Positions 1 to 9,284 of a stretch of DNA of 10,580 nt are shown here, in pieces. Each line of letters begins with the position of its first letter. Positions within the stretch are counted from its first letter, which is position 1. Source of the DNA: a virus. Taxonomy: Duplodnaviria > Heunggongvirae > Uroviricota > Caudoviricetes. The stretch lies in the IMG/VR virus record IMGVR_UViG_2602041863_000006, one strand, 5' to 3'. Under the pieces are notes generated by a model. It ran no database searches and was not told the origin of the DNA. It was given only the letters and a program-made list of their open reading frames with translations. Both the position numbers and the translations under genes were made by a program.

Positions 1-207
1 AGTTCCATTCCCCACCACCGTGCCACTTGATGCACCATCAAGCCAGTCGAAATTCATACCTCCACTGTTTGGTCTCCTTAATGGAACGGTATGTGTATGT
101 GCGCCAGCACTATTTGCAGTACCAGATACATTGTGGGTATCGCCATCATCGGTATCGGTGATGTCGTCCTCTGCGGGTCCGGGTTCAGTTCTGGCAACCA
201 TACTCAT
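1..207 (-). CDS. Hypothetical protein, N-terminal 69 codons only (gene runs off the left edge); Gly/Ser/Thr-rich with an AGAHTHT motif reminiscent of phage tail-fibre repeats
   Basis: ATG at 207..205 (minus) preceded by GGAG with an 8-nt spacer; the frame stays open to position 1; an in-frame stop lies upstream at 265-267. Translation: MSMVARTEPGPAEDDITDTDDGDTHNVSGTANSAGAHTHTVPLRRPNSGGMNFDWLDGASSGTVVGNGT. It does not resemble a P2 major capsid protein (gpN), which would be expected after O. Confidence 0.4.
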   Translation of the reverse strand, partial: MSMVARTEPGPAEDDITDTDDGDTHNVSGTANSAGAHTHTVPLRRPNSGGMNFDWLDGASSGTVVGNGT

Positions 208-302
208 GGGGTTCACTCCTGAAAAAAATCGGGCGGTGGGTGCGCGGTGTAAACGGTCACGGAGTCAAACCGGAACACCGCGCACGCCGCCCGCTGACGG
301 GG

Positions 303-890
303 TCAGTCGTTAATCCCCATTACGCGGTTAAACCACTGGGTGCCTTCTTCCTGGCGTTGTTCTGCCATTTCGATGATTTCAGACTCGATGGCTTCGGAAA
401 TGAGCGGTGCTTCACCCTGGACACTGTTGAACGTCATCACCGCCTGACGCTGCTGTGCCGTGAATTTCAGGCGCTCAGTGCCCAGGCTTGCCGGGGTGTC
501 GGTCATCGCCAGCCCGACCAGATAGGCGCGCCCGTTAACGGAGAACTGCGGGTGCAGTTCGATACTGGAATAGATTTTCTTGCCGTCCGCGACAAGCTGC
601 TTCATGCGCTCGGTCGGTTCGATTTCTGCATACAGCGCAGTACGTCCGGCCAGCGGACCTTCCGTAATGTCTTCCGTACTCAGTGCGGTGACATCGCCCA
701 TTGCGGAAAATTCGCTTGACGGGCATGGCGAGAGATAGTGCTCAACGTTCACGCGGGCAGCGTAAACATCCGGGTTGAAGTTCTCGGCGGCTTCACGCAG
801 ATGCACCGGACTGATTTCACGGCCATCAACAGTTGATCCGGAGACAGCCACGCGAAACTTTTTGCGGGATGTCTTTTTTTCATTAGCCAT
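303..890 (-). CDS. O: Capsid scaffolding protein, P2 gpO-like, apparently shortened (~195 aa versus ~284 aa in P2)
   Basis: ORF 303..923 (-). The N-terminal two-thirds (KKFRVAVSGSTVDGREIS...VEHY...YLVGLAMTDTPASLGTE) matches my recollection of P2 gpO. Preferred start is the ATG at 890..888, which has a GAGGGG Shine-Dalgarno 8 nt upstream; the ATG at 923 has none. The C-terminal tail is unlike gpO. Confidence 0.7.
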   Translation of the reverse strand: MANEKKTSRKKFRVAVSGSTVDGREISPVHLREAAENFNPDVYAARVNVEHYLSPCPSSEFSAMGDVTALSTEDITEGPLAGRTALYAEIEPTERMKQLVADGKKIYSSIELHPQFSVNGRAYLVGLAMTDTPASLGTERLKFTAQQRQAVMTFNSVQGEAPLISEAIESEIIEMAEQRQEEGTQWFNRVMGIND

Positions 891-923
891 AGTTTTTGCC
901 CCTCTGACTGGTTCTTCAGTCAT

Positions 924-1044
924 GATGGCAAAGCGTAACAGGCTGATACAAAGGGCTTTTGTTGTAAGAAAACGGCCAGAACAGGGGGTTAAGGAGAACG
1001 GTTTCGCGCGCGGGTAATCTTCCTGTAATTACTCAGGGGGAGCA
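924..1044. promoter_or_regulatory. Divergent intergenic region between O(-) and P(+); expected site of divergent late promoters
   Basis: 121 bp non-coding spacer between two divergently oriented start codons. In P2 this interval holds the Ogr-activated late promoters PO and PP. A canonical TGT-N12-ACA dyad was not found at correct spacing (closest is TGT-N15-ACA at 963-983). Confidence 0.4.
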
Positions 1045-2796
1045 ATGATTCAGGACGCTTTTGTGCGCCAGCGTGCGCGGCAACTTTACTGGCAGGGTTA
1101 TCCGCCCGCAGAAATATCACGTCTGATGGGAATAAACCCGAACACGATTTATGCGTGGAAAAAACGCGACCAGTGGGATGAAACGCCACCCGTGCAGCGT
1201 GTCACGCAGTCCATCGATGCGCGCCTCATCCAGCTTACTGAAAAACAGAATAAAACAGGTGGTGACTTTAAGGAAATAGACCTGCTGACCCGGCAGCTTA
1301 AAAAACTGCATGATGGCCAGCCGGATGCGACGGCCACAGGAAAGAAAGGCCGGGCGAAAAAACTTAAAAATCATTTCACGCCGGAGCAGATTGCCGCACT
1401 GCGGGAAAAAATCATCAGCAGGCTGGAGTGGCATCAGCGGGGCTGGTTTGACTCCCTGAGCCTTTGCAGGGAAGCCGGGATACGTAACAGGATGATCCTG
1501 AAATCCCGACAGATTGGGGCGACCTGGTATTTTGCACAGGAAGCACTGCTGATGGCGCTGCGTGACGATGTGGCACAACCTTACCAGCGTAACCAGATTT
1601 TTTTGTCTGCGTCGCGTCGTCAGGCGTTCCAGTTTAAAAGCATTATTCAGAAGGCCGCGGCTGAAGTTGATGTGGAGCTGAAAGGGGGCGATAAAATCAT
1701 CCTCTCCAACGGCGCAGAACTGCATTTTCTCGGTACTTCTGCTGCGACGGCACAGTCCTACACAGGCAATTTTTATTTTGATGAATTTTTCTGGGTCAGT
1801 CGCTTTGCTGAACTGCGCAAGGTGGCTGGCGCTATGGCAACCCTCAGCGGGCTGCGACGCACCTACTTCTCCACGCCATCCACCGAAACGCACGAGGCAT
1901 ACGTCTACTGGAACGGCGACCGCTGGAACGAGAAAAAGGCCGCGCATAAACGCCAGCGTTTTTCTGTGGACTGGAAAACGCTGCATAACGGGCTTATCTG
2001 CCCCGACCGGACGTGGCGGCAAATTGTCACGCTGGAAGATGTGGTTAATCACGGCTGGAAACACACCGATATTGACGAAATTCGTGATGAAAACACCGAA
2101 GACGAGTTCCGCAATCTCTATATGTGTGAGTTTGTCCGCGAAGGGGAATCGGCATTTAACCTGAATATCCTGATTGGCTGCGGTGTTGACGGATACGACG
2201 ACTGGAAAGACTGGAAACCTTTTGCTCCCCGCCCGATGGGGAATCGTCCGGTATGGATTGGGTATGACGCAAACGGCAGCAGTGGAAACGGCGACAGCGG
2301 CGCTGTGTCCGTGGTGGTTCCTCCGGCTGTTCCTGGTGGCCGTTTTCGAACGGTGGAGACGCGACGCGTTCAGGGGCTGGAGTTTGAAGAACAGGCCAGA
2401 GTCATTGAAGAGTTCACGTGTCGCTACAACGTGGAACACATCGGCATTGATGCGACTGGCGGGCACGGGGATGCCGTTTATCAGATAGTGAAACGGTTTT
2501 TCCCTGCTGCTATTCCGTACACCTTCACGCTGTCATCAAAACGGTCGCTGGTACTGAAAATGCTGCAAATAATGCGTGCCGGGCGGTGGGAATACGATCG
2601 CGCCGAACGCGAGCTGGTCGCGGCCTTTAACGCCGTGCGTAAGGTGAAAACACCGGGCGGCTTTATCACTTACGAAACGGACCGCGCGAGGGGGATCAGC
2701 CATGGCGACCTTGCGTGGGCAACCATGCTTGCTGTCATTAATGAACCGATTGGCGGCGAAGGAGAAAACGAGCGTTTCACGGTTATGGAGTTCTGA
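1045..2796 (+). CDS. P: Terminase ATPase (large) subunit, P2 gpP-like
   Basis: 583-aa ORF with a G-rich Shine-Dalgarno (AGGGGGAG, 1035-1042). N-terminal HTH-like segment (YPPAEISRLMGINPNTIYAWKKR) typical of gpP-family terminases. Size matches P2 gpP (~590 aa). The stop overlaps the downstream portal start (ATGA at 2794-2798). Confidence 0.85.
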   Translation: MIQDAFVRQRARQLYWQGYPPAEISRLMGINPNTIYAWKKRDQWDETPPVQRVTQSIDARLIQLTEKQNKTGGDFKEIDLLTRQLKKLHDGQPDATATGKKGRAKKLKNHFTPEQIAALREKIISRLEWHQRGWFDSLSLCREAGIRNRMILKSRQIGATWYFAQEALLMALRDDVAQPYQRNQIFLSASRRQAFQFKSIIQKAAAEVDVELKGGDKIILSNGAELHFLGTSAATAQSYTGNFYFDEFFWVSRFAELRKVAGAMATLSGLRRTYFSTPSTETHEAYVYWNGDRWNEKKAAHKRQRFSVDWKTLHNGLICPDRTWRQIVTLEDVVNHGWKHTDIDEIRDENTEDEFRNLYMCEFVREGESAFNLNILIGCGVDGYDDWKDWKPFAPRPMGNRPVWIGYDANGSSGNGDSGAVSVVVPPAVPGGRFRTVETRRVQGLEFEEQARVIEEFTCRYNVEHIGIDATGGHGDAVYQIVKRFFPAAIPYTFTLSSKRSLVLKMLQIMRAGRWEYDRAERELVAAFNAVRKVKTPGGFITYETDRARGISHGDLAWATMLAVINEPIGGEGENERFTVMEF

Positions 2797-3842
2797 TGAG
2801 CAGAAAAAATAAAAAAGTGCGCATGAGTTCACGCATTGATCTCGCTGATGCGCTCAGGAAAGAATCATCGCTCAGTGCATTCACATTTGATGGTCCTTAT
2901 CGCCTGACCGGGCATGACCTGCTGGACAATATGTACTGTGCTGATAACGGGCGGTGGTATGAAACCCCGGTGGACTGGTACGGTCTGGCAAGAGCTGCCC
3001 GGCAAACGTCCTGGCATCAGTCTGCGCTTTACTTTAAGCGCAATGTATTGCTCGGCTGCTATATTCCGCACCCGCTGCTTTCCCGGCAGGATTTCTCGGC
3101 GCTGGCGCTGGACTGGTTTGTGTTCGGTAACGCATTCCTTGAGCTTCGGAGCAATATGCTCGGCGAACCGCTTAAATTACGGCACGCCCTGGCGAAATAC
3201 ATGCGACGCGGAAGCGATCTTGAATCATGGTGGTATGTGCAGGATGGCAAGGATGCGTTTCAGTTTCGTCCTGGCAAAGTGTGCCACCTGATGAATCCGG
3301 ACATTAACCAGGAAATCTACGGCATGCCGGAATATCTTGGCGCATTACTCTCGGCCAGCCTGTCTCATTCGGCGGACATGTTCAGAAAACTGTACTACGA
3401 CAATGGATCCCACGCCGGGTGCATCATCTACATCGGTGCAGCGCAGGTAAACCGCGAAAGCATGGACTCCCTGAAGGAAACGCTACAGGGTGCGCGTGGT
3501 GGTGGTGCATTTAAAAACGTGCTCATTCACGCGCCCAACGGGGGCAAAGAAGGTGTGCAAATTTTGCCGTTCCAGCAGATCACCGCAAAGGATGAGTTCA
3601 TGAATGTTAAGGCGGCATCCCGTGATGATGTGCTGGCTGCGCACCGCGTTCCGCCGCAACTGATGGGGGCGATGCCGGGCGAAAAAAGTGCGTTTGGTGA
3701 TGTGGAGAAGGCAGCGCGGGTTTACGCAATTAACGAGCTGATGCCCGTAATGGAGGCCATGAAGCATATCAATGACTGGCTTGGCGAAGAGGTGATCCGC
3801 TTTAACCCTTACGCACTGCTGGACACTCAGCCCACATCCTGA
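2796..3842 (+). CDS. Q: Portal protein, P2 gpQ-like
   Basis: 348-aa ORF, translationally coupled to P (ATGA overlap), GGAG at 2787-2790. Size and position downstream of P match P2 gpQ (~344 aa). Confidence 0.85.
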   Translation: MSRKNKKVRMSSRIDLADALRKESSLSAFTFDGPYRLTGHDLLDNMYCADNGRWYETPVDWYGLARAARQTSWHQSALYFKRNVLLGCYIPHPLLSRQDFSALALDWFVFGNAFLELRSNMLGEPLKLRHALAKYMRRGSDLESWWYVQDGKDAFQFRPGKVCHLMNPDINQEIYGMPEYLGALLSASLSHSADMFRKLYYDNGSHAGCIIYIGAAQVNRESMDSLKETLQGARGGGAFKNVLIHAPNGGKEGVQILPFQQITAKDEFMNVKAASRDDVLAAHRVPPQLMGAMPGEKSAFGDVEKAARVYAINELMPVMEAMKHINDWLGEEVIRFNPYALLDTQPTS

Positions 3843-3868
3843 CGCGCTTCGCTTGTCTGCTGCTTCGC

Positions 3869-3893
3869 CGGGGCATAAAAAATTTATGCCCCG
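3869..3893. other. Perfect inverted repeat (11-bp arms, 3-nt loop) 27 bp downstream of the portal stop; possible terminator or protein-binding palindrome
   Basis: CGGGGCATAAA-aaa-TTTATGCCCCG. No U-tract follows on either strand, so it is not a classic intrinsic terminator. Confidence 0.35.
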
Positions 3894-4316
3894 ACTCTCC
3901 AGCTCCTGTATCAATCAGATAATTTCACGACATCTTCCAGCTTATCGCCATCATCGACGATCAGGCTCTTACGCAATCCCACCGCGTTGACTGCATGTTC
4001 TTGCCGCCTCAGTGCGATTTTGACGGCCTTATCTGTCACCCCATCAAATCAAAAGCCCTCACGTCTTTTTCACGCTCAGTGTGAGAAATACAGCCATTCT
4101 GTTGTGTCGCTGCGACATCGTTCAGGGAATGCTATTTACCCCCTGAAACGCGGGCTGTTCCCCCGTCACCTGCGCGCAGAAAAAGTGCGTTTTTTTGTGC
4201 ACGCACGGATCCTTGACGGATCCAGCCGCCACGCGGGCCGGAAGGGCAAAAAGTCGTTCAAAATAATTGTGCAAATTTGTGCACTATCGTGCATGTAAAT
4301 TCATAAAAAAATTACA

Positions 4317-4339
4317 GAAAAAAGGCCGCTTTCGCGGCC
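4317..4339 (-). terminator. Rho-independent terminator for the ATPase-peptidase operon
   Basis: GGCCGC-tttc-GCGGCC hairpin (4324-4339) followed on the minus strand by a run of 7 T (complement of 4317-4323). It lies 8 bp past the peptidase stop (4347-4349). Confidence 0.6.
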
Positions 4340-4346
4340 ATAAAAA

Positions 4347-6551
4347 TTACGTGTCGAGAGAAATTTGTGTGCGCAGTTGAATAGGATTCAGAATTGTATA
4401 TCGCTGGCGAATAACATTATATAAATCAAAGTCTTTTACCCTTACGCTTATTACCATCGCATATTGCATATCAGGGGCTGAAACTCCCTTAACATGGCGC
4501 GAAGAATCTCGGGCATGATACCGTATATCAAAAACTGGATCGCTTAATAATGTATCAGCACTGAACTTTTTGCTTCTGTGCAAACAAGTTTCCCACTTAT
4601 GACCTTCACTCCTACACTCCCTTTCAGTCTTATACTGGCTTTTTTGACCAAAGAAATCATCTGTATCGGTATCGTCAAGGCCGAATCTTGGGCGGAAAGT
4701 TACCTGCATACCGGCCCTTGTATAGTTTACTGAATGTTCAGGATCTACTGGGGTTTGAATGCATAAAGTAGCGGTAAGCTCAAATGCTTCGTCAAAGGGA
4801 ACATCAGGGAATGGGATCGGTGCCCTTAAATATTTATTTTTTGCTAATGAACCATAGTAAATTACTGTAGCAGTATCATTTGGACAATCGATTAAAACGT
4901 TAGGATCCTCACTAAACCGTCCCCAACCGATATGTTCACGCGAATATTTTCTTGATGTTTCAGCATGATGAACAAGCAACGCTTTCAATGCAATGGTGTT
5001 CAATGGAGTTCCTGATAGAGCCGCAACTCCAGCGGCCGTTCTCAATGCTAATGGAGAGGCATAACTGGTTCCTTGAACTCCAACTATAGAACCAAGCAAA
5101 GGGTTGTAAGTGTAAAAAGGCTCGTCGTCGCTTCCACCAAAAATAACACCATCAGGTTTAACGAATCCGGGGCTTCTGCCTGGGCCAATACAGCTATATG
5201 GTGCCCGCCCCCATTTTTCACCGCTACGATCAGCAGCACCAATCGCTAGCGCGTTTACCATATCGGAAGGAGGTTGTATTCTCGCTGCATCACCGTCCTC
5301 ATTGCCATCATTCCCAACAGCAACAGTAAGTAATATCCCATGCTTAGCACAGATTTGGTCTAAAACAGCAGTCCATACATGAACCTCATCATCACCAATT
5401 GGAAGATGAGGACCAATACTTAGATTAGCGAACTTATAGTCACCACTATCAAGAACGGACTGTATTTTCTTAAGGACATCAAATAAATCCCAATTGCCAT
5501 TGTCACCTGATGTCGGTGAAAGAACTCTATAATGATCTACATTCATAAACGGTCTTTTAAAAGAAGGTGCATTTTCCTCGACACGTCCGAATAAGAAAGT
5601 GGATGTTACTTCATTACCGTGCTGCAATAATAATCCGCTTGTTTCTTTGGTGTCTGGATACACGTATTCCGTAACCCAATTACTCAAGTCAGCTGTCCCC
5701 AAGCCACCATCAAAAATGGCAATACGTTCGGATTCAAGAACAGCTTTAGAATTAGGGAGCTCCGGTGTAACTATATTAGATAACTTTCTGACAATGTTCG
5801 GCTGAGTACACCTGAGAGACGGCATCGGCCGCACAACGCGGATTAATGAAAAATCGAGTGTTTTTTTCATATCTTCAGGTCGCGCGTGTGCAACGATGAA
5901 AGTCAGTCCACCAACTTGGATTCTACTTTTGTAATCAACAGAGACACCATATTGTGCCGCATAGCTAATATAGGCTTTAACGATATCATCGTCTTCAACC
6001 CCAGCATGAAGAACCACTTCAAATTTTATCAAATCACTTTTCGCATGCTCAAAATTGCGTGCTCTCTCTTTTCCTTCAAAAAAGCTAACACTTTCAATTT
6101 CGATCAAATCCTTTTGTACGCCCTTCGGAGCTGTAGGGGAATTTAAAATTTCCTTAAATCTTATAACGGCATCATCATCACCGCTAACAAACAGTTGCGC
6201 CGTTACTAAGTCCTTATTCTGATCGCACTGACGTGCCGCTTTCCGTGGGCGAATGATTACCTGACGGCTACCGACATCCCGTAAACCTGTCGCTCTAAGT
6301 AATCCTTCCGGAAAGTAGCTTTTACCCAAAAACGCTGGGTGTAAAGTTAAATTGAATACACTCTCCCCCCTTGGCTTAGCCGCATCATCCAAACTGCGAA
6401 AGCGTGAGAGTAAAGTATCAATCTCTGGGTTTAAATGCTCCCTTACTTCTTCAAGAGTATAGGGATAGCGCTTACCATCCCTTCCTTTAGGCAAAGGTTC
6501 CTTTTTTGTCAGAACATGACCGTTACCTAAAAGTAAGTTCCTTTCCATCAT
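4347..6551 (-). CDS. ietS: Subtilisin-like (S8) serine peptidase, 734 aa, with a ~270-aa N-terminal region and ~200-aa C-terminal region of unknown function; candidate effector of an IetAS-like defence pair
   Basis: Catalytic triad motifs in subtilase order and spacing: Asp in IAIFDGGLG (D281), His in LLQHGNEVTS (H311), oxyanion Asn in AVGNDGN (N414), Ser in GTSYASPLAL (S496, codon complement of 5064-5066). The start ATG overlaps the upstream ATPase stop (ATGATG, 6546-6551) with GGGGG 8 nt upstream. AT-rich codon usage unlike the flanking phage genes. Gene symbol is from recall of the Gao et al. 2020 system and is unverified. Confidence 0.85.
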   Translation of the reverse strand: MMERNLLLGNGHVLTKKEPLPKGRDGKRYPYTLEEVREHLNPEIDTLLSRFRSLDDAAKPRGESVFNLTLHPAFLGKSYFPEGLLRATGLRDVGSRQVIIRPRKAARQCDQNKDLVTAQLFVSGDDDAVIRFKEILNSPTAPKGVQKDLIEIESVSFFEGKERARNFEHAKSDLIKFEVVLHAGVEDDDIVKAYISYAAQYGVSVDYKSRIQVGGLTFIVAHARPEDMKKTLDFSLIRVVRPMPSLRCTQPNIVRKLSNIVTPELPNSKAVLESERIAIFDGGLGTADLSNWVTEYVYPDTKETSGLLLQHGNEVTSTFLFGRVEENAPSFKRPFMNVDHYRVLSPTSGDNGNWDLFDVLKKIQSVLDSGDYKFANLSIGPHLPIGDDEVHVWTAVLDQICAKHGILLTVAVGNDGNEDGDAARIQPPSDMVNALAIGAADRSGEKWGRAPYSCIGPGRSPGFVKPDGVIFGGSDDEPFYTYNPLLGSIVGVQGTSYASPLALRTAAGVAALSGTPLNTIALKALLVHHAETSRKYSREHIGWGRFSEDPNVLIDCPNDTATVIYYGSLAKNKYLRAPIPFPDVPFDEAFELTATLCIQTPVDPEHSVNYTRAGMQVTFRPRFGLDDTDTDDFFGQKSQYKTERECRSEGHKWETCLHRSKKFSADTLLSDPVFDIRYHARDSSRHVKGVSAPDMQYAMVISVRVKDFDLYNVIRQRYTILNPIQLRTQISLDT

Positions 6552-7630
6552 TTAATCCCCCACTTTTGTAATTTATTCGCGATTGTTGGATGTGAAACAC
6601 CAACTAATTCAGCTATCTTCCTATTTGAAAAACCGTCAAAATGATATTTAATTATATTGAGATCATTATCGCTAAATTCATCCAATGAAACCCTCTCCGT
6701 AATTACGGCTTCTATTAATGAGCTTTCAAATGGAATATTTCTAAGTACCTCATTCTTTTTGGAGAAATTCAAAATACGGTTAATGATGGCAAAGGACATG
6801 CCATCTAATAATGGTGCAAGTTTTTTAGATAGTTCAGGTTCAATATTATGATTGACTAAATATCTATCTATCAGTTCTACTGATGGCATATTAAATTTAA
6901 GGATGTGCTCAAATCGACGCCAAACAGCCGGATCTAAGATATCAGGGTGATTAGTCGCAGCAACAAGAAGCGAGGTCGCTGGCCACTCATCTATGGTCTG
7001 TAGGAGTACAGTAACTAAACGTTTTAATTCTCCAACGTCCCTGTCATCATCACGTCTTTTTGCAACAGCATCAAATTCATCAAGCAAAAGGACACATGGT
7101 TTCTCTTTGGCATAATCCATAACGGATTTAATATTATTACCTGTTTTTCCCAAAAGAGAACTCATTACAGATGAGAGATCCAATGTTAAAAGAGGTAAAT
7201 TTAACTTTGCAGCAAGCCAATGTGCGGACATTGTTTTGCCTACGCCTGGCGGGCCAGAAAGTAAAACCGTCTTCACAGGTTCAAGACCAGCTTTGAACAA
7301 AGAAACAGCATTCTCTCTTTCGTTAACAATTGACTCCAGCTTCTTTGAGATATCCGTATTCCATACAGGTTCTTCAACAATTGCGTTGACAGATGTTTCC
7401 TGCAAAAGGTTTCGTCTGGAGTCTCCATCCACAGGCATAGGAGCCTTACTAGATGCCCCACGTAATACTGTTCCCTCAGCAATTAACGAAGCCAGCTTAG
7501 AAGCTAAAGCCTCATCATTTTTACGGATGTTGTTAATCATCTTTCTGCATAGGAGTGTAAATGCATTTGCGTTGCCTTTGATGCCTTGCTCGATGAGTTT
7601 GAAAAGTTCATCCTCCCTCACGTTTACCAT
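6548..7630 (-). CDS. ietA: AAA+ ATPase (classical AAA clade) with C-terminal helix-turn-helix; candidate ATPase partner of an IetAS-like defence pair
   Basis: Walker A GPPGVGKT (complement of 7232-7255), Walker B VLLLDEFD, sensor and Arg-rich segment (ATNHPDILDPAVWRRFE), C-terminal HTH-like NRKIAELVGVSHPTIANKLQK. Preferred start is the ATG at 7630 (MVNVRE...), which has GGGGG upstream; the ORF-track start at 7675 has no Shine-Dalgarno. Gene symbol is from recall and is unverified. Confidence 0.85.
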   Translation of the reverse strand: MVNVREDELFKLIEQGIKGNANAFTLLCRKMINNIRKNDEALASKLASLIAEGTVLRGASSKAPMPVDGDSRRNLLQETSVNAIVEEPVWNTDISKKLESIVNERENAVSLFKAGLEPVKTVLLSGPPGVGKTMSAHWLAAKLNLPLLTLDLSSVMSSLLGKTGNNIKSVMDYAKEKPCVLLLDEFDAVAKRRDDDRDVGELKRLVTVLLQTIDEWPATSLLVAATNHPDILDPAVWRRFEHILKFNMPSVELIDRYLVNHNIEPELSKKLAPLLDGMSFAIINRILNFSKKNEVLRNIPFESSLIEAVITERVSLDEFSDNDLNIIKYHFDGFSNRKIAELVGVSHPTIANKLQKWGIK

Positions 7631-7934
7631 AAAACCCCCAATAAAACATAAGCTTGTGTAAGCTGGTAACTGCATTGATGAAAATCAGTGCCTAATGTTA
7701 CCACTCTTGCTGGCGTTATTCAAAGAGTATCCTCACTTTTTTACTGTATGGATAATCAGCATAAAATCTATCCAGTTGGGTTACTCGAACATATTGTCAA
7801 TACTTGTTTCCAACGATTGATCAGTTCTACAGTTTTATCTCCTTCACTTGTGTTGGCAGCATGCTTATTCCTGAACCAGCTCGATTACTTGGCCATTTGA
7901 GAAAGATGTGTAGATCTTCTGATGGTTTGTATTG

Positions 7935-8008: not shown

Positions 8009-8320
8009 TTATTCAGGAAATAACGCCCGGATATTTCCGGCCATCTGACTGGTTATCTGTGCGGTTGGTACTGGCTGTGACTCGGGGCGTTCTGTCCTGG
8101 TTTGTGTCACTGATAACGTCTCATCGTCAGCCCATGCAGCCAGTCGGTAAGCCTCTGCCGGATTCATTTTCAGAAGTGCCAGCCCGGCCAGAAAAGCCAC
8201 GCGTTGGCCGCTTTTGCGGGCTTCTGGTGTAAGGCTGTCCAGCCATGTGCATGCTTCGCCTTCGTTCTTGACGGCGGCGGGCTTCAGATAGAAACTTATC
8301 CGTCTGGTTGGTGTCGTCAT
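8009..8320 (-). CDS. parR: ParR-like small centromere-binding protein (103 aa)
   Basis: ATG at 8320..8318 preceded by AAGGAG; starts 4 nt after the parM stop, as in plasmid R1 parM-parR. Weak similarity to R1 ParR in the N-terminal part (RRISFYLKP...GLALL). The ORF-track start at 8455 overlaps parM and is rejected. Confidence 0.6.
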   Translation of the reverse strand: MTTPTRRISFYLKPAAVKNEGEACTWLDSLTPEARKSGQRVAFLAGLALLKMNPAEAYRLAAWADDETLSVTQTRTERPESQPVPTAQITSQMAGNIRALFPE

Positions 8321-8324
8321 TGGT

Positions 8325-9284
8325 TTACTCCTTGTCCATTGCGTACAGCCCATTAACCAGAGCAAACTGTGGCACTCCGTCCGCGATGAAAGTCGCATTA
8401 ACTCCGCAGGCTTCGCGGATAGCGGGTGCCACAATCTCCGCCCCTCCACCGACAACCATCACCCGCCCGTAACCCGAAAAAACCGCCAGCGCGCGGATCA
8501 CGCGTTGTTTCAGTGTTTCTTCCTTTTCACGAATAACCGCCATCAGGCTGTTGTAATGCGCGTCATTGTGGATGTGCCGGCGCAGCCAGGCTTCATCATG
8601 GCGATGTTCGATAATGGTATTGGCGATGTGGTGACTGGTACGCATACCGTTAGTGGCCATCACCGACAGTACGGCATCGGCCATCAGGGAAACGCCTACG
8701 TGTGGATCGCAAAACACCTGGCTGATACCTGCCAGTTGTCCCTGAACCTTTGCCACATCCAGCGTGGTTCCTCCTAAATCCACAATCAGCAGGGATTCAA
8801 ACGGACTCATGTCAGCCAGTGCTTTAAAGCCAGCCGGAATGGATTCAGGCATAACCCGCACGTTACGGATAGTGAATGCCTCACCGTTCTGGTACTCCAC
8901 CGGGCGCATAACGTTCGCTTTTTTGCGGTTGATGTTGGCCATGTCCGGCTGTGCGTTTGTGTCGAAATATTCGCTCAGTGGCAGGGTGACAACCACATCC
9001 ACCTCCTGTGGTGTGATGCCTGATTTGACCAGCGCGTGGTGAATGGCGATTACATTCACATCGCTGTACTGGTATTGCGTGTCGGTTGTCTGGACAAAGC
9101 GATCGCTGACCGGATCAAAACCATAGCGCACGCCATCAAGCATGTAGTTCGCAGGCTGCGAGCCGCCGAACGGCGCAGACCATTCCGACTTGAAGCTGTT
9201 CGGGCTGATGGCGTTGCGGCGTTCGCCGTTCTCAGTCCATGCCAGCTTGATGTTGGTGGAGCCGTCGTCGATACAAATTTTCAT
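8325..9284 (-). CDS. parM: ParM/StbA-like actin-type plasmid segregation ATPase (319 aa)
   Basis: N-terminus MKICIDDGSTNIKLAW...ISPNSFKSEW...YQYSDVNVIAIHHAL closely resembles plasmid R1 ParM (from recall). Size matches R1 ParM (~320 aa). AGGAAA Shine-Dalgarno 6 nt upstream of the ATG. Confidence 0.85.
   Translation of the reverse strand: MKICIDDGSTNIKLAWTENGERRNAISPNSFKSEWSAPFGGSQPANYMLDGVRYGFDPVSDRFVQTTDTQYQYSDVNVIAIHHALVKSGITPQEVDVVVTLPLSEYFDTNAQPDMANINRKKANVMRPVEYQNGEAFTIRNVRVMPESIPAGFKALADMSPFESLLIVDLGGTTLDVAKVQGQLAGISQVFCDPHVGVSLMADAVLSVMATNGMRTSHHIANTIIEHRHDEAWLRRHIHNDAHYNSLMAVIREKEETLKQRVIRALAVFSGYGRVMVVGGGAEIVAPAIREACGVNATFIADGVPQFALVNGLYAMDKE

Follow-up and report, generated by a model that had tools for sequence, protein, structure and literature searches.

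In P2-like phages the cos site lies between gpQ and gpA and adjoins a defence hotspot (Rousset et al., PMC9122126); the P2/P4 cos is common to the phage and to a satellite that has no terminase (PMC9122126). A 55-bp cos core, that of Ziermann and Calendar 1990, is cited in PMC5694545, PMC3931495 and PMC9122126; the core limits used below were derived here by comparing P2, 186 and P4. Read outward from Q, the core of these three consists of YGCGCGC/R, a 19-nt cohesive end, a 19-nt GC palindrome and TTTTAATGCA. The cos site of phage lambda combines a nicking site, cosN, with cosB, which contains repeated R sites for the small terminase. Here we analyse a 10,580-nt stretch of DNA (the window; IMG/VR record IMGVR_UViG_2602041863_000006), with emphasis on the interval 3843-4346, for which a preliminary description had proposed terminase recognition elements or operators.

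Genomic setting and elements of the interval

The window is identical to the chromosome of E. coli O6:H16 strain 2014EL-1346-6 (NZ_CP024232.1), and the closest sequenced phages, as judged by blastn, are P88 and its relatives (Xuanwuvirus, Peduoviridae). It is a P88-like, P2-family prophage of E. coli in a defective copy: compared to the E2348/69 prophage (L310 178-2936), which has both the small terminase gpM (WP_000632335.1) and the major capsid gene gpN, about 2.2 kb is missing at window 1-1045. This loss removes gpM, gpN and the part of the scaffold gene gpO that encodes its C terminus, and RefSeq marks gpO as a pseudogene. Of the cognate terminase, gpP is present and gpM is deleted. Because gpM and the capsid gene are deleted, a cos site in this copy would be usable only in trans; judged by its sequence, the module 4140-4297 described below is a member of the cos class without autonomous use here. 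The same chromosome matches 4140-4310 at a second place and the whole window three times, so that another P88-like element or satellite may be present, as a possible helper or competitor.

The features of the region are collected in Table 1. The preliminary description had placed the interval where P2 has cos, just past Q, and it does lie directly beyond Q and very probably contains the cos region. The conserved module is found between Q and a variable gpA-side region (IetAS, ParM, replication endonuclease), as in P2; it begins ~300 bp past the Q stop (cos being ~310 bp from Q), compared with 168 bp for the P2 cos. The hairpin following Q is at the same relative place as the annotated P2 tQ and is presumably the Q terminator and the counterpart of tQ, although the terminator scan did not list it.

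On the far side of the interval, the S8 peptidase (734 aa) and the AAA ATPase (375 aa), encoded on the minus strand at 4347-7675, match IetS and IetA of the anti-phage system IetAS (E=6e-41 and 3e-89, respectively). This pair has a GC content of ~40%, versus ~55% in the phage backbone, and is located in the cos-adjacent P2 hotspot. ParM and plasmid-stability (StbB-like) genes occupy 8009-9284 on the minus strand, between the hotspot and the replication gene; they fit the partition systems that about a quarter of P2-like phages reportedly carry.

Table 1. Features in and around the interval 3843-4346 (window coordinates)
Feature	Coordinates	Strand	Remarks
Large terminase gene (gpP homologue)	1045-2796	+	
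Portal gene Q	2796-3842	+	
Hairpin after Q, CGGGGCATAAA/TTTATGCCCCG	3869-3893	+	11-nt perfect inverted repeat; outside cos
P88-clade-specific non-coding spacer, Q to cos	3894-4139	.	Q-to-cos distance shorter in other clades
42-aa ORF annotated by RefSeq	3911-4039	-	Not credible
Conserved module, very probably cos	4140-4297	+	Common to P88-like phages, related clades and satellites
Counterpart of the 55-bp P2-family cos core	4145-4201	+	From global alignments
Predicted cohesive end GGGCTGTTCCCCCGTCACC (minus strand 5'-GGTGACGGGGGAACAGCCC)	4152-4170, +-2 nt	+	Cut positions inferred
19-nt quasi-palindrome TGCGCGCAGAAAAAGTGCG	4171-4189	+	Positional counterpart of P2 CGCCCGCTTCACGGGGCGG, same length
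T-run and TGCA box 1, TTTTTTTGTGCA	4190-4201	+	Counterpart of TTTTAATGCA, right end of the P2 core
Spacer from box 1 to box 2	4202-4268	+	Constant length, poorly conserved; low information content
TGCA boxes 2-4, GTGCA x3	4269-4293	+	Exact 10-bp period; conserved in family and satellites
Terminator of the incoming ietS	4324-4339	-	GGCCGCGAAAGCGGCC then T-run; first element of the variable hotspot, outside cos
S8 peptidase, AAA ATPase, ParM and StbB-like partition genes, replication endonuclease, in this order	beyond 3843-4346	-	

All motifs listed in the preliminary description are found in the sequence, with some coordinates one off and one period to be corrected. Three GTGCA repeats are indeed present, but their period is exactly 10 bp (4269-4273, 4279-4283 and 4289-4293) and not ~11 bp; the triple pattern was obtained in none of 200 shuffles (0/200). 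A fourth copy in the same orientation, TTGTGCA at 4195-4201, had been counted only as part of GTGCAC, and TTGTGCA occurs three times in the 10.6-kb window, each time inside the interval. The GGATCC-ttgac-GGATCC element is located at 4207-4223 (4207-4212 and 4218-4223), one base from where it had been placed, as two copies of the unit ACGGATCC at 11-bp spacing; with four GGATCC in the window against 2.06 expected, it is therefore their adjacency alone that is unusual. The GC-rich CGCCACGCGGGCCGGAAGGGCA is likewise displaced by one base, to 4227-4248, while the run of seven T (4190-4196) is flanked by GTGCG (4185-4189) and GTGCAC (4197-4202) as described. In terms of the element map, the T-run with its GTGCG and GTGCAC flanks is the end of the quasi-palindrome plus box 1, and the GTGCA repeats make up boxes 2-4. 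Two copies of the 8-mer ACGCGGGC are present at a distance of 83 bp, one at the left margin of the predicted cohesive end (4148-4155) and the other in the GC-rich spacer segment (4231-4238). An Rfam scan of the whole window gave no match.

The stem at 4171-4189 was picked up in a terminator-like scan, and its central part varies between clades. The box 1-box 2 spacer holds the GGATCC pair, the GC-rich segment, a semi-conserved GGGC.GAAAGGGCA/A-run and the terminal junction of a virion-derived record discussed below. Only the P88 clade has the GGATCC pair; neither the satellites nor other clades carry it.

Conservation of the module and its colinearity with mapped cos sites

By blastn, P88-like phages are 93-95% identical between the Q stop and ~4298, and the similarity ends where the hotspot starts; of 5426 complete E. 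coli genomes, 1149 carry the segment 4140-4310. When IMG/VR was scanned with the patterns 4160-4177 and 4267-4284, ~170 loci were recovered, the left block being present in 157. The module is shared by ~150 related loci, and the portals of the scanned loci are from 67% to 100% identical to that of the window. In a profile of 83 non-redundant copies, information content is high over 4140-4177 and low over 4178-4190; it is again high over 4191-4201 (~1-2 bits per position over 4190-4201), low at 4204-4247, moderate in the A-run at 4248-4252, high once more at 4259-4297 and nil past 4297. The idea of a conserved hairpin with covariation in the spacer was dropped because inverted repeats vary in place and sequence between clades.

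The module is not restricted to phages. The weakest full-length match in E. coli (79.5% identity over 4140-4293) is located in a 12.7-kb gcd-hpt island (L008/L179) that encodes two integrases, an Icd-like protein, a toprim primase, an ogr/Delta-like protein, a P2-family capsid homologue and MazEF, and in which no terminase, portal or tail genes were found. Three further loci (L159, L177 and L038, the last of them more distant) resemble it in gene content, and in each of these islands the module is present and terminase and portal genes are missing. The variable module parts of each satellite fit one phage clade better than they fit the window; those of L038, for instance, are 0.76 identical to L037 versus 0.32 to the window. 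By copying the whole module, satellites could obtain packaging by a helper phage. As represented by L179 7345-19859 (NZ_CM132658.1), the gcd-hpt island is similar to P4 in size and in the genes for regulation and replication, and in addition has its own P2-family major capsid homologue with a 236-aa neighbour; L159, L177 and L038 are further satellite-like islands.

Alignment to the cos regions of P2 and 186, as proposed in the preliminary description, revealed conservation. In global alignments 4145-4201 aligns end to end with P2 (35/58 identities), 186 (36/60) and phiCTX (39/59), with a 2-nt gap required for 186 and phiCTX; the figure for the intermediate locus L133 is 40/59. Within the core, 4152-4170 and P2 GTGCTTTCCCCGCCTCGCC are identical at 13 of 19 positions by hand count. 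The canonical GGCG(A/T)GGCGGGGAAAGCA(C/T) cohesive end is not in the window, the best profile match being this 13/19 counterpart. A family scoring matrix built on the segment left of box 1 scores best on P2, 186 and P4 at the cohesive end, where the match ranks first of 241 shifts, at shift +2 in all three because the T-run is 2 nt longer than in P2, 186 and P4. Four loci with portals 67-69% identical to that of the window (L133, L135, L138 and L174), which were recovered via the right block alone, have at the counterpart of 4152-4170 the sequence CTCCCCCGCCTCGCC followed by TGCGCGC, which is the canonical P2 CCCCGCCTCGCC. Finally, the profile of the P88-type family matches the right arm of P4 (nhmmer, E=5.6e-6), with the T-run and GTGCA aligned to P4 GTTTTAATGCA, the family CTCAGACCGCGCC aligned to an identical P4 string and boxes 2-3 placed on ATGCAAAGCCATGCAC.

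The spacing of the TGCA boxes extends this colinearity to the right arm. Counted from box 1, TGCA occurs at offsets 0/72/82/92 in the window, 0/72/82/94 in P2, 0/6/72/82/91/95 in 186, 0/6/46/72/82/95 in P4, 0/6/72/82/91 in PSP3 and 0/6/71/81/100 in RSA1, the inter-box spacers of these six being otherwise unalignable. The +72 and +82 positions are exact in the window, P2, 186, P4 and PSP3, which is our own, unpublished observation; in the literature we found no description of the cos of P88/Xuanwuvirus, of gpM binding sites or of TGCA boxes. These offsets suggest that a four-box TGCA array with fixed 72/10/10-bp spacing may be common to the P2-family cos sites of E. coli, Salmonella and Ralstonia phages. 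If the array docks the small terminase, it would be a target for footprinting and for engineering of cosmids and transducing particles with P88-like helpers.

Overall, the locus resembles the cos of P2, 186 and P4 in lying beyond Q and next to a variable hotspot, in being common to helper phage and satellite, and in the order of its elements: a GC-rich 19-mer, a 19-nt palindrome, a T-run with TGCA, and boxes at +72, +82 and +92-95. It differs from them in the limited (13/19) identity of its cohesive-end counterpart, in a palindrome that is A/T-rich rather than G/C-rich, in having YGCGCGC to the right rather than to the left of the 19-mer, in the longer T-run and in the semi-conserved, G-rich motif that its spacer has in addition. 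The best core alignment to any phage with mapped ends is that to the Pseudomonas phage phiCTX, which has 21-nt cohesive ends and the record of which annotates repeats R4-R6 across cos. Both phiCTX and the window have CCCCCG.CAC..T, a 19-nt A-rich segment and TTTTT.TGCAC, and L133 bridges the two; unlike the window, phiCTX keeps the canonical GGCGTGGCGGGG, has CTGCG/CTGCA rather than GTGCA in its distal boxes, carries a toxin gene between cos and Q and infects a different host. The likeness to lambda cos is probably one of function alone, with a nicking site and, on one arm, bent DNA and a putative array of repeated binding sites; a relationship in sequence is not apparent, and we do not count the window as a member of the lambda family.

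On account of its position, its non-coding conservation, its sharing with satellites and its colinearity with mapped cos sites, 4140-4297 is in all likelihood the cos (DNA-packaging) site of this P88-like, P2-family prophage. The colinearity with the cos of P2, 186, P4 and phiCTX supports what the preliminary description had proposed for the content of the interval, and predicted terminase recognition elements are a reasonable reading of repeats that, like the T-run with GTGCAC, are conserved and have counterparts in the cos of P2, 186 and P4. Such a cos is an ordinary, expected feature and a known kind of site. It would define the packaging signal of a prophage type that is very common in E. 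coli, and of the satellites that exploit it, and the module can serve to anchor, by sequence, the left boundary of the defence hotspot next to cos.

On the basis of homology to P2, 186, P4 and phiCTX, the large terminase (the gpP homologue) would introduce staggered nicks around the GC-rich 4152-4170, which would leave ~19-nt 5' cohesive ends. Recognition would involve the right arm, that is, the 19-nt quasi-palindrome, the T-run with TGCA box 1 and the three further TGCA boxes. Starting at +72 of box 1, boxes 2-4 would most likely form a docking array for the small terminase (the gpM homologue), as suggested by P2 and lambda; they lie on one face of the helix because they are 10 bp apart. Once bound to the boxes, the small terminase could position the large terminase for nicking at the GC block, again by analogy with P2 and lambda. 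It is likewise by such comparison that we infer the exact nick positions, the length and polarity of the overhang and the protein that binds the boxes.

Position of the nicks

The colinear alignments and the intermediates point to 4152-4170, and the nicks probably flank this segment, which would put the likely cutting site ~70 bp to the left of where the preliminary description had seen it. The GC-rich 4227-4248, which had been considered to resemble the P2/186 cohesive end loosely, lies in the least conserved part of the module. Two other candidate nick sites, 4230-4248 (from record ends) and 4179-4197 (19 nt between GCGCGCA and TGCACGC), were dropped after colinear alignment and inspection of the intermediates. 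Motifs of the GCR type near candidate nicks were given no weight because they were found for every nick model.

The sole physical clue supports the module as the cos region but counts against 4152-4170. The virion-derived record LR595891 (P88_4B11) opens inside the module: it starts at 4248 and ends at 4249, so that its junction (4248/4249) is 78 bp rightward of the predicted cohesive end. Sibling records of the study that produced it terminate within the P2 cohesive end, and their termini look physical for that reason: the P2_4C9 sequence runs from P2 nt 20 round to nt 9, that of P2_2H1 opens with a Nextera adaptor and then P2 nt 10, and P2_4E6b also has adaptor remnants. In the records of P2_2H1 and P2_4E6b (L309 1-31, NC_049386.1, and L308 11-16, NC_049389.1, respectively), Nextera-like remnants (GTCGGCAGCGTCAGATGTGTATAAGAGACAG and AGACAG) are fused to a partial cohesive end. 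For these genomes end repeats were trimmed and nt 1 was then chosen 'relative to reference genomes' (PMC6969025). Being seamless, the junction of LR595891 fits raw ends less well than it fits a circular contig that was opened anew close to a dip in coverage.

Contig ends were also used as a proxy for virion ends in four scans of IMG/VR and one of metagenomes; they gave no consistent site, most truncations, apart from one virion-derived GenBank record, being storage breaks and not true contig ends. No contig end in these scans was assigned to 4152-4170, which counts against this segment as well. The true contig ends are at 4231 (L023), ~4158 (L259), ~4094 (L063) and 4294 (L149).

These observations bear on an unlikely alternative in which the nicks are at 4230-4269, the cohesive end being either the GC-rich ~4227-4253 or the adjacent A/T-rich 4249-4269, and 4152-4170 being an ancestral relic or a terminase binding site. 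Besides the opening of LR595891 at exactly 4248/4249, the physical appearance of the sibling termini and the draft contig that stops at 4231, this placement would be in keeping with the 19/20 conservation of GGGCCGGA[A/T]GGGCAAAAAGT between the window and the satellite L008, the semi-conserved GGGC.GAAAGGGCA, a loose likeness to inverted P2 GGCGGGGAAAGCA and the repetition of ACGCGGGC at 4148 and 4231. However, the spacer is the least conserved part of the module, the homologous spacer is uncleaved in P2, 186 and P4, the canonical cohesive end is found at the left block in the intermediates and in phiCTX, and the LR595891 junction is seamless, with nt 1 chosen after trimming of end repeats (PMC6969025). 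A more specific version, to which we assign a still slightly smaller chance, is that P88-type phages moved the cutting site ~80 bp into the right arm, to ~4230-4269 around the LR595891 junction, and kept 4152-4170 almost invariant purely for terminase docking; if true, nicking and recognition sites would have swapped roles in this P2-family cos.

Operator and coding readings

Repeats spaced 10 bp apart are typical of operator arrays, and the three distal TGCA boxes of P2 overlap the -35 element of the old promoter and the sequence upstream of it, according to our own reading of the sequence and transcript starts. The conserved repeats could therefore be imagined to regulate the hotspot cargo or the late genes, as operators or a promoter region, rather than to serve as packaging signals, as the preliminary description had also considered, but we regard this as highly improbable. 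No sigma-70-like promoter was found in 3700-4500, and reading the sequence by eye gave no exact match to an Ogr/Delta-type site (TGT-N12-ACA) or to the IHF consensus. The cargo is transcribed toward the repeats and stops at a terminator before reaching them. Moreover, the boxes stay fixed while the identity and orientation of the cargo vary, and they are retained in satellites with unrelated neighbours.

With regard to coding potential, the 42-aa ORF has 22, 22 and 17 variable sites at codon positions 1, 2 and 3, respectively, among 66 distinct relatives, shows no third-position excess, contains stops and frameshifts in some relatives and has no Pfam match. Across 4160-4297, none of the frames on either strand is open throughout the diverse family. 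This bears out the earlier claim that the interval lacks a credible ORF. In 120 of 150 loci the left block and box 2 are separated by the same distance, and this near-invariant spacing, together with the lack of a conserved frame, indicates that it is at the DNA level that the module is conserved. That the region encodes one or more small proteins, either the 42-aa ORF or a minus-strand ORF across 4166-4294 (annotated as 90 aa in a satellite), deserves hardly any credence: such ORFs are annotated by RefSeq, and tblastn with the translation of the satellite ORF matches most loci, but the minus-strand frame is shortened to 8-16 codons in most diverse members and the 42-aa ORF behaves as described above.

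Damaged copies of the module were seen at two loci. One of these, L069 (IMGVR_UViG_2648501669_000002), has a deletion from TGCA box 1 to box 3, apparently through recombination between the repeats; it was rejected as a guide to the need for the box 1-box 3 stretch, on which it is uninformative because the locus is a mosaic with a 30%-identical portal. The other, L312 (IMGVR_UViG_2681813261_000011), has an insertion at the equivalent of window position 4172, the end of which we take to be that of IS1.
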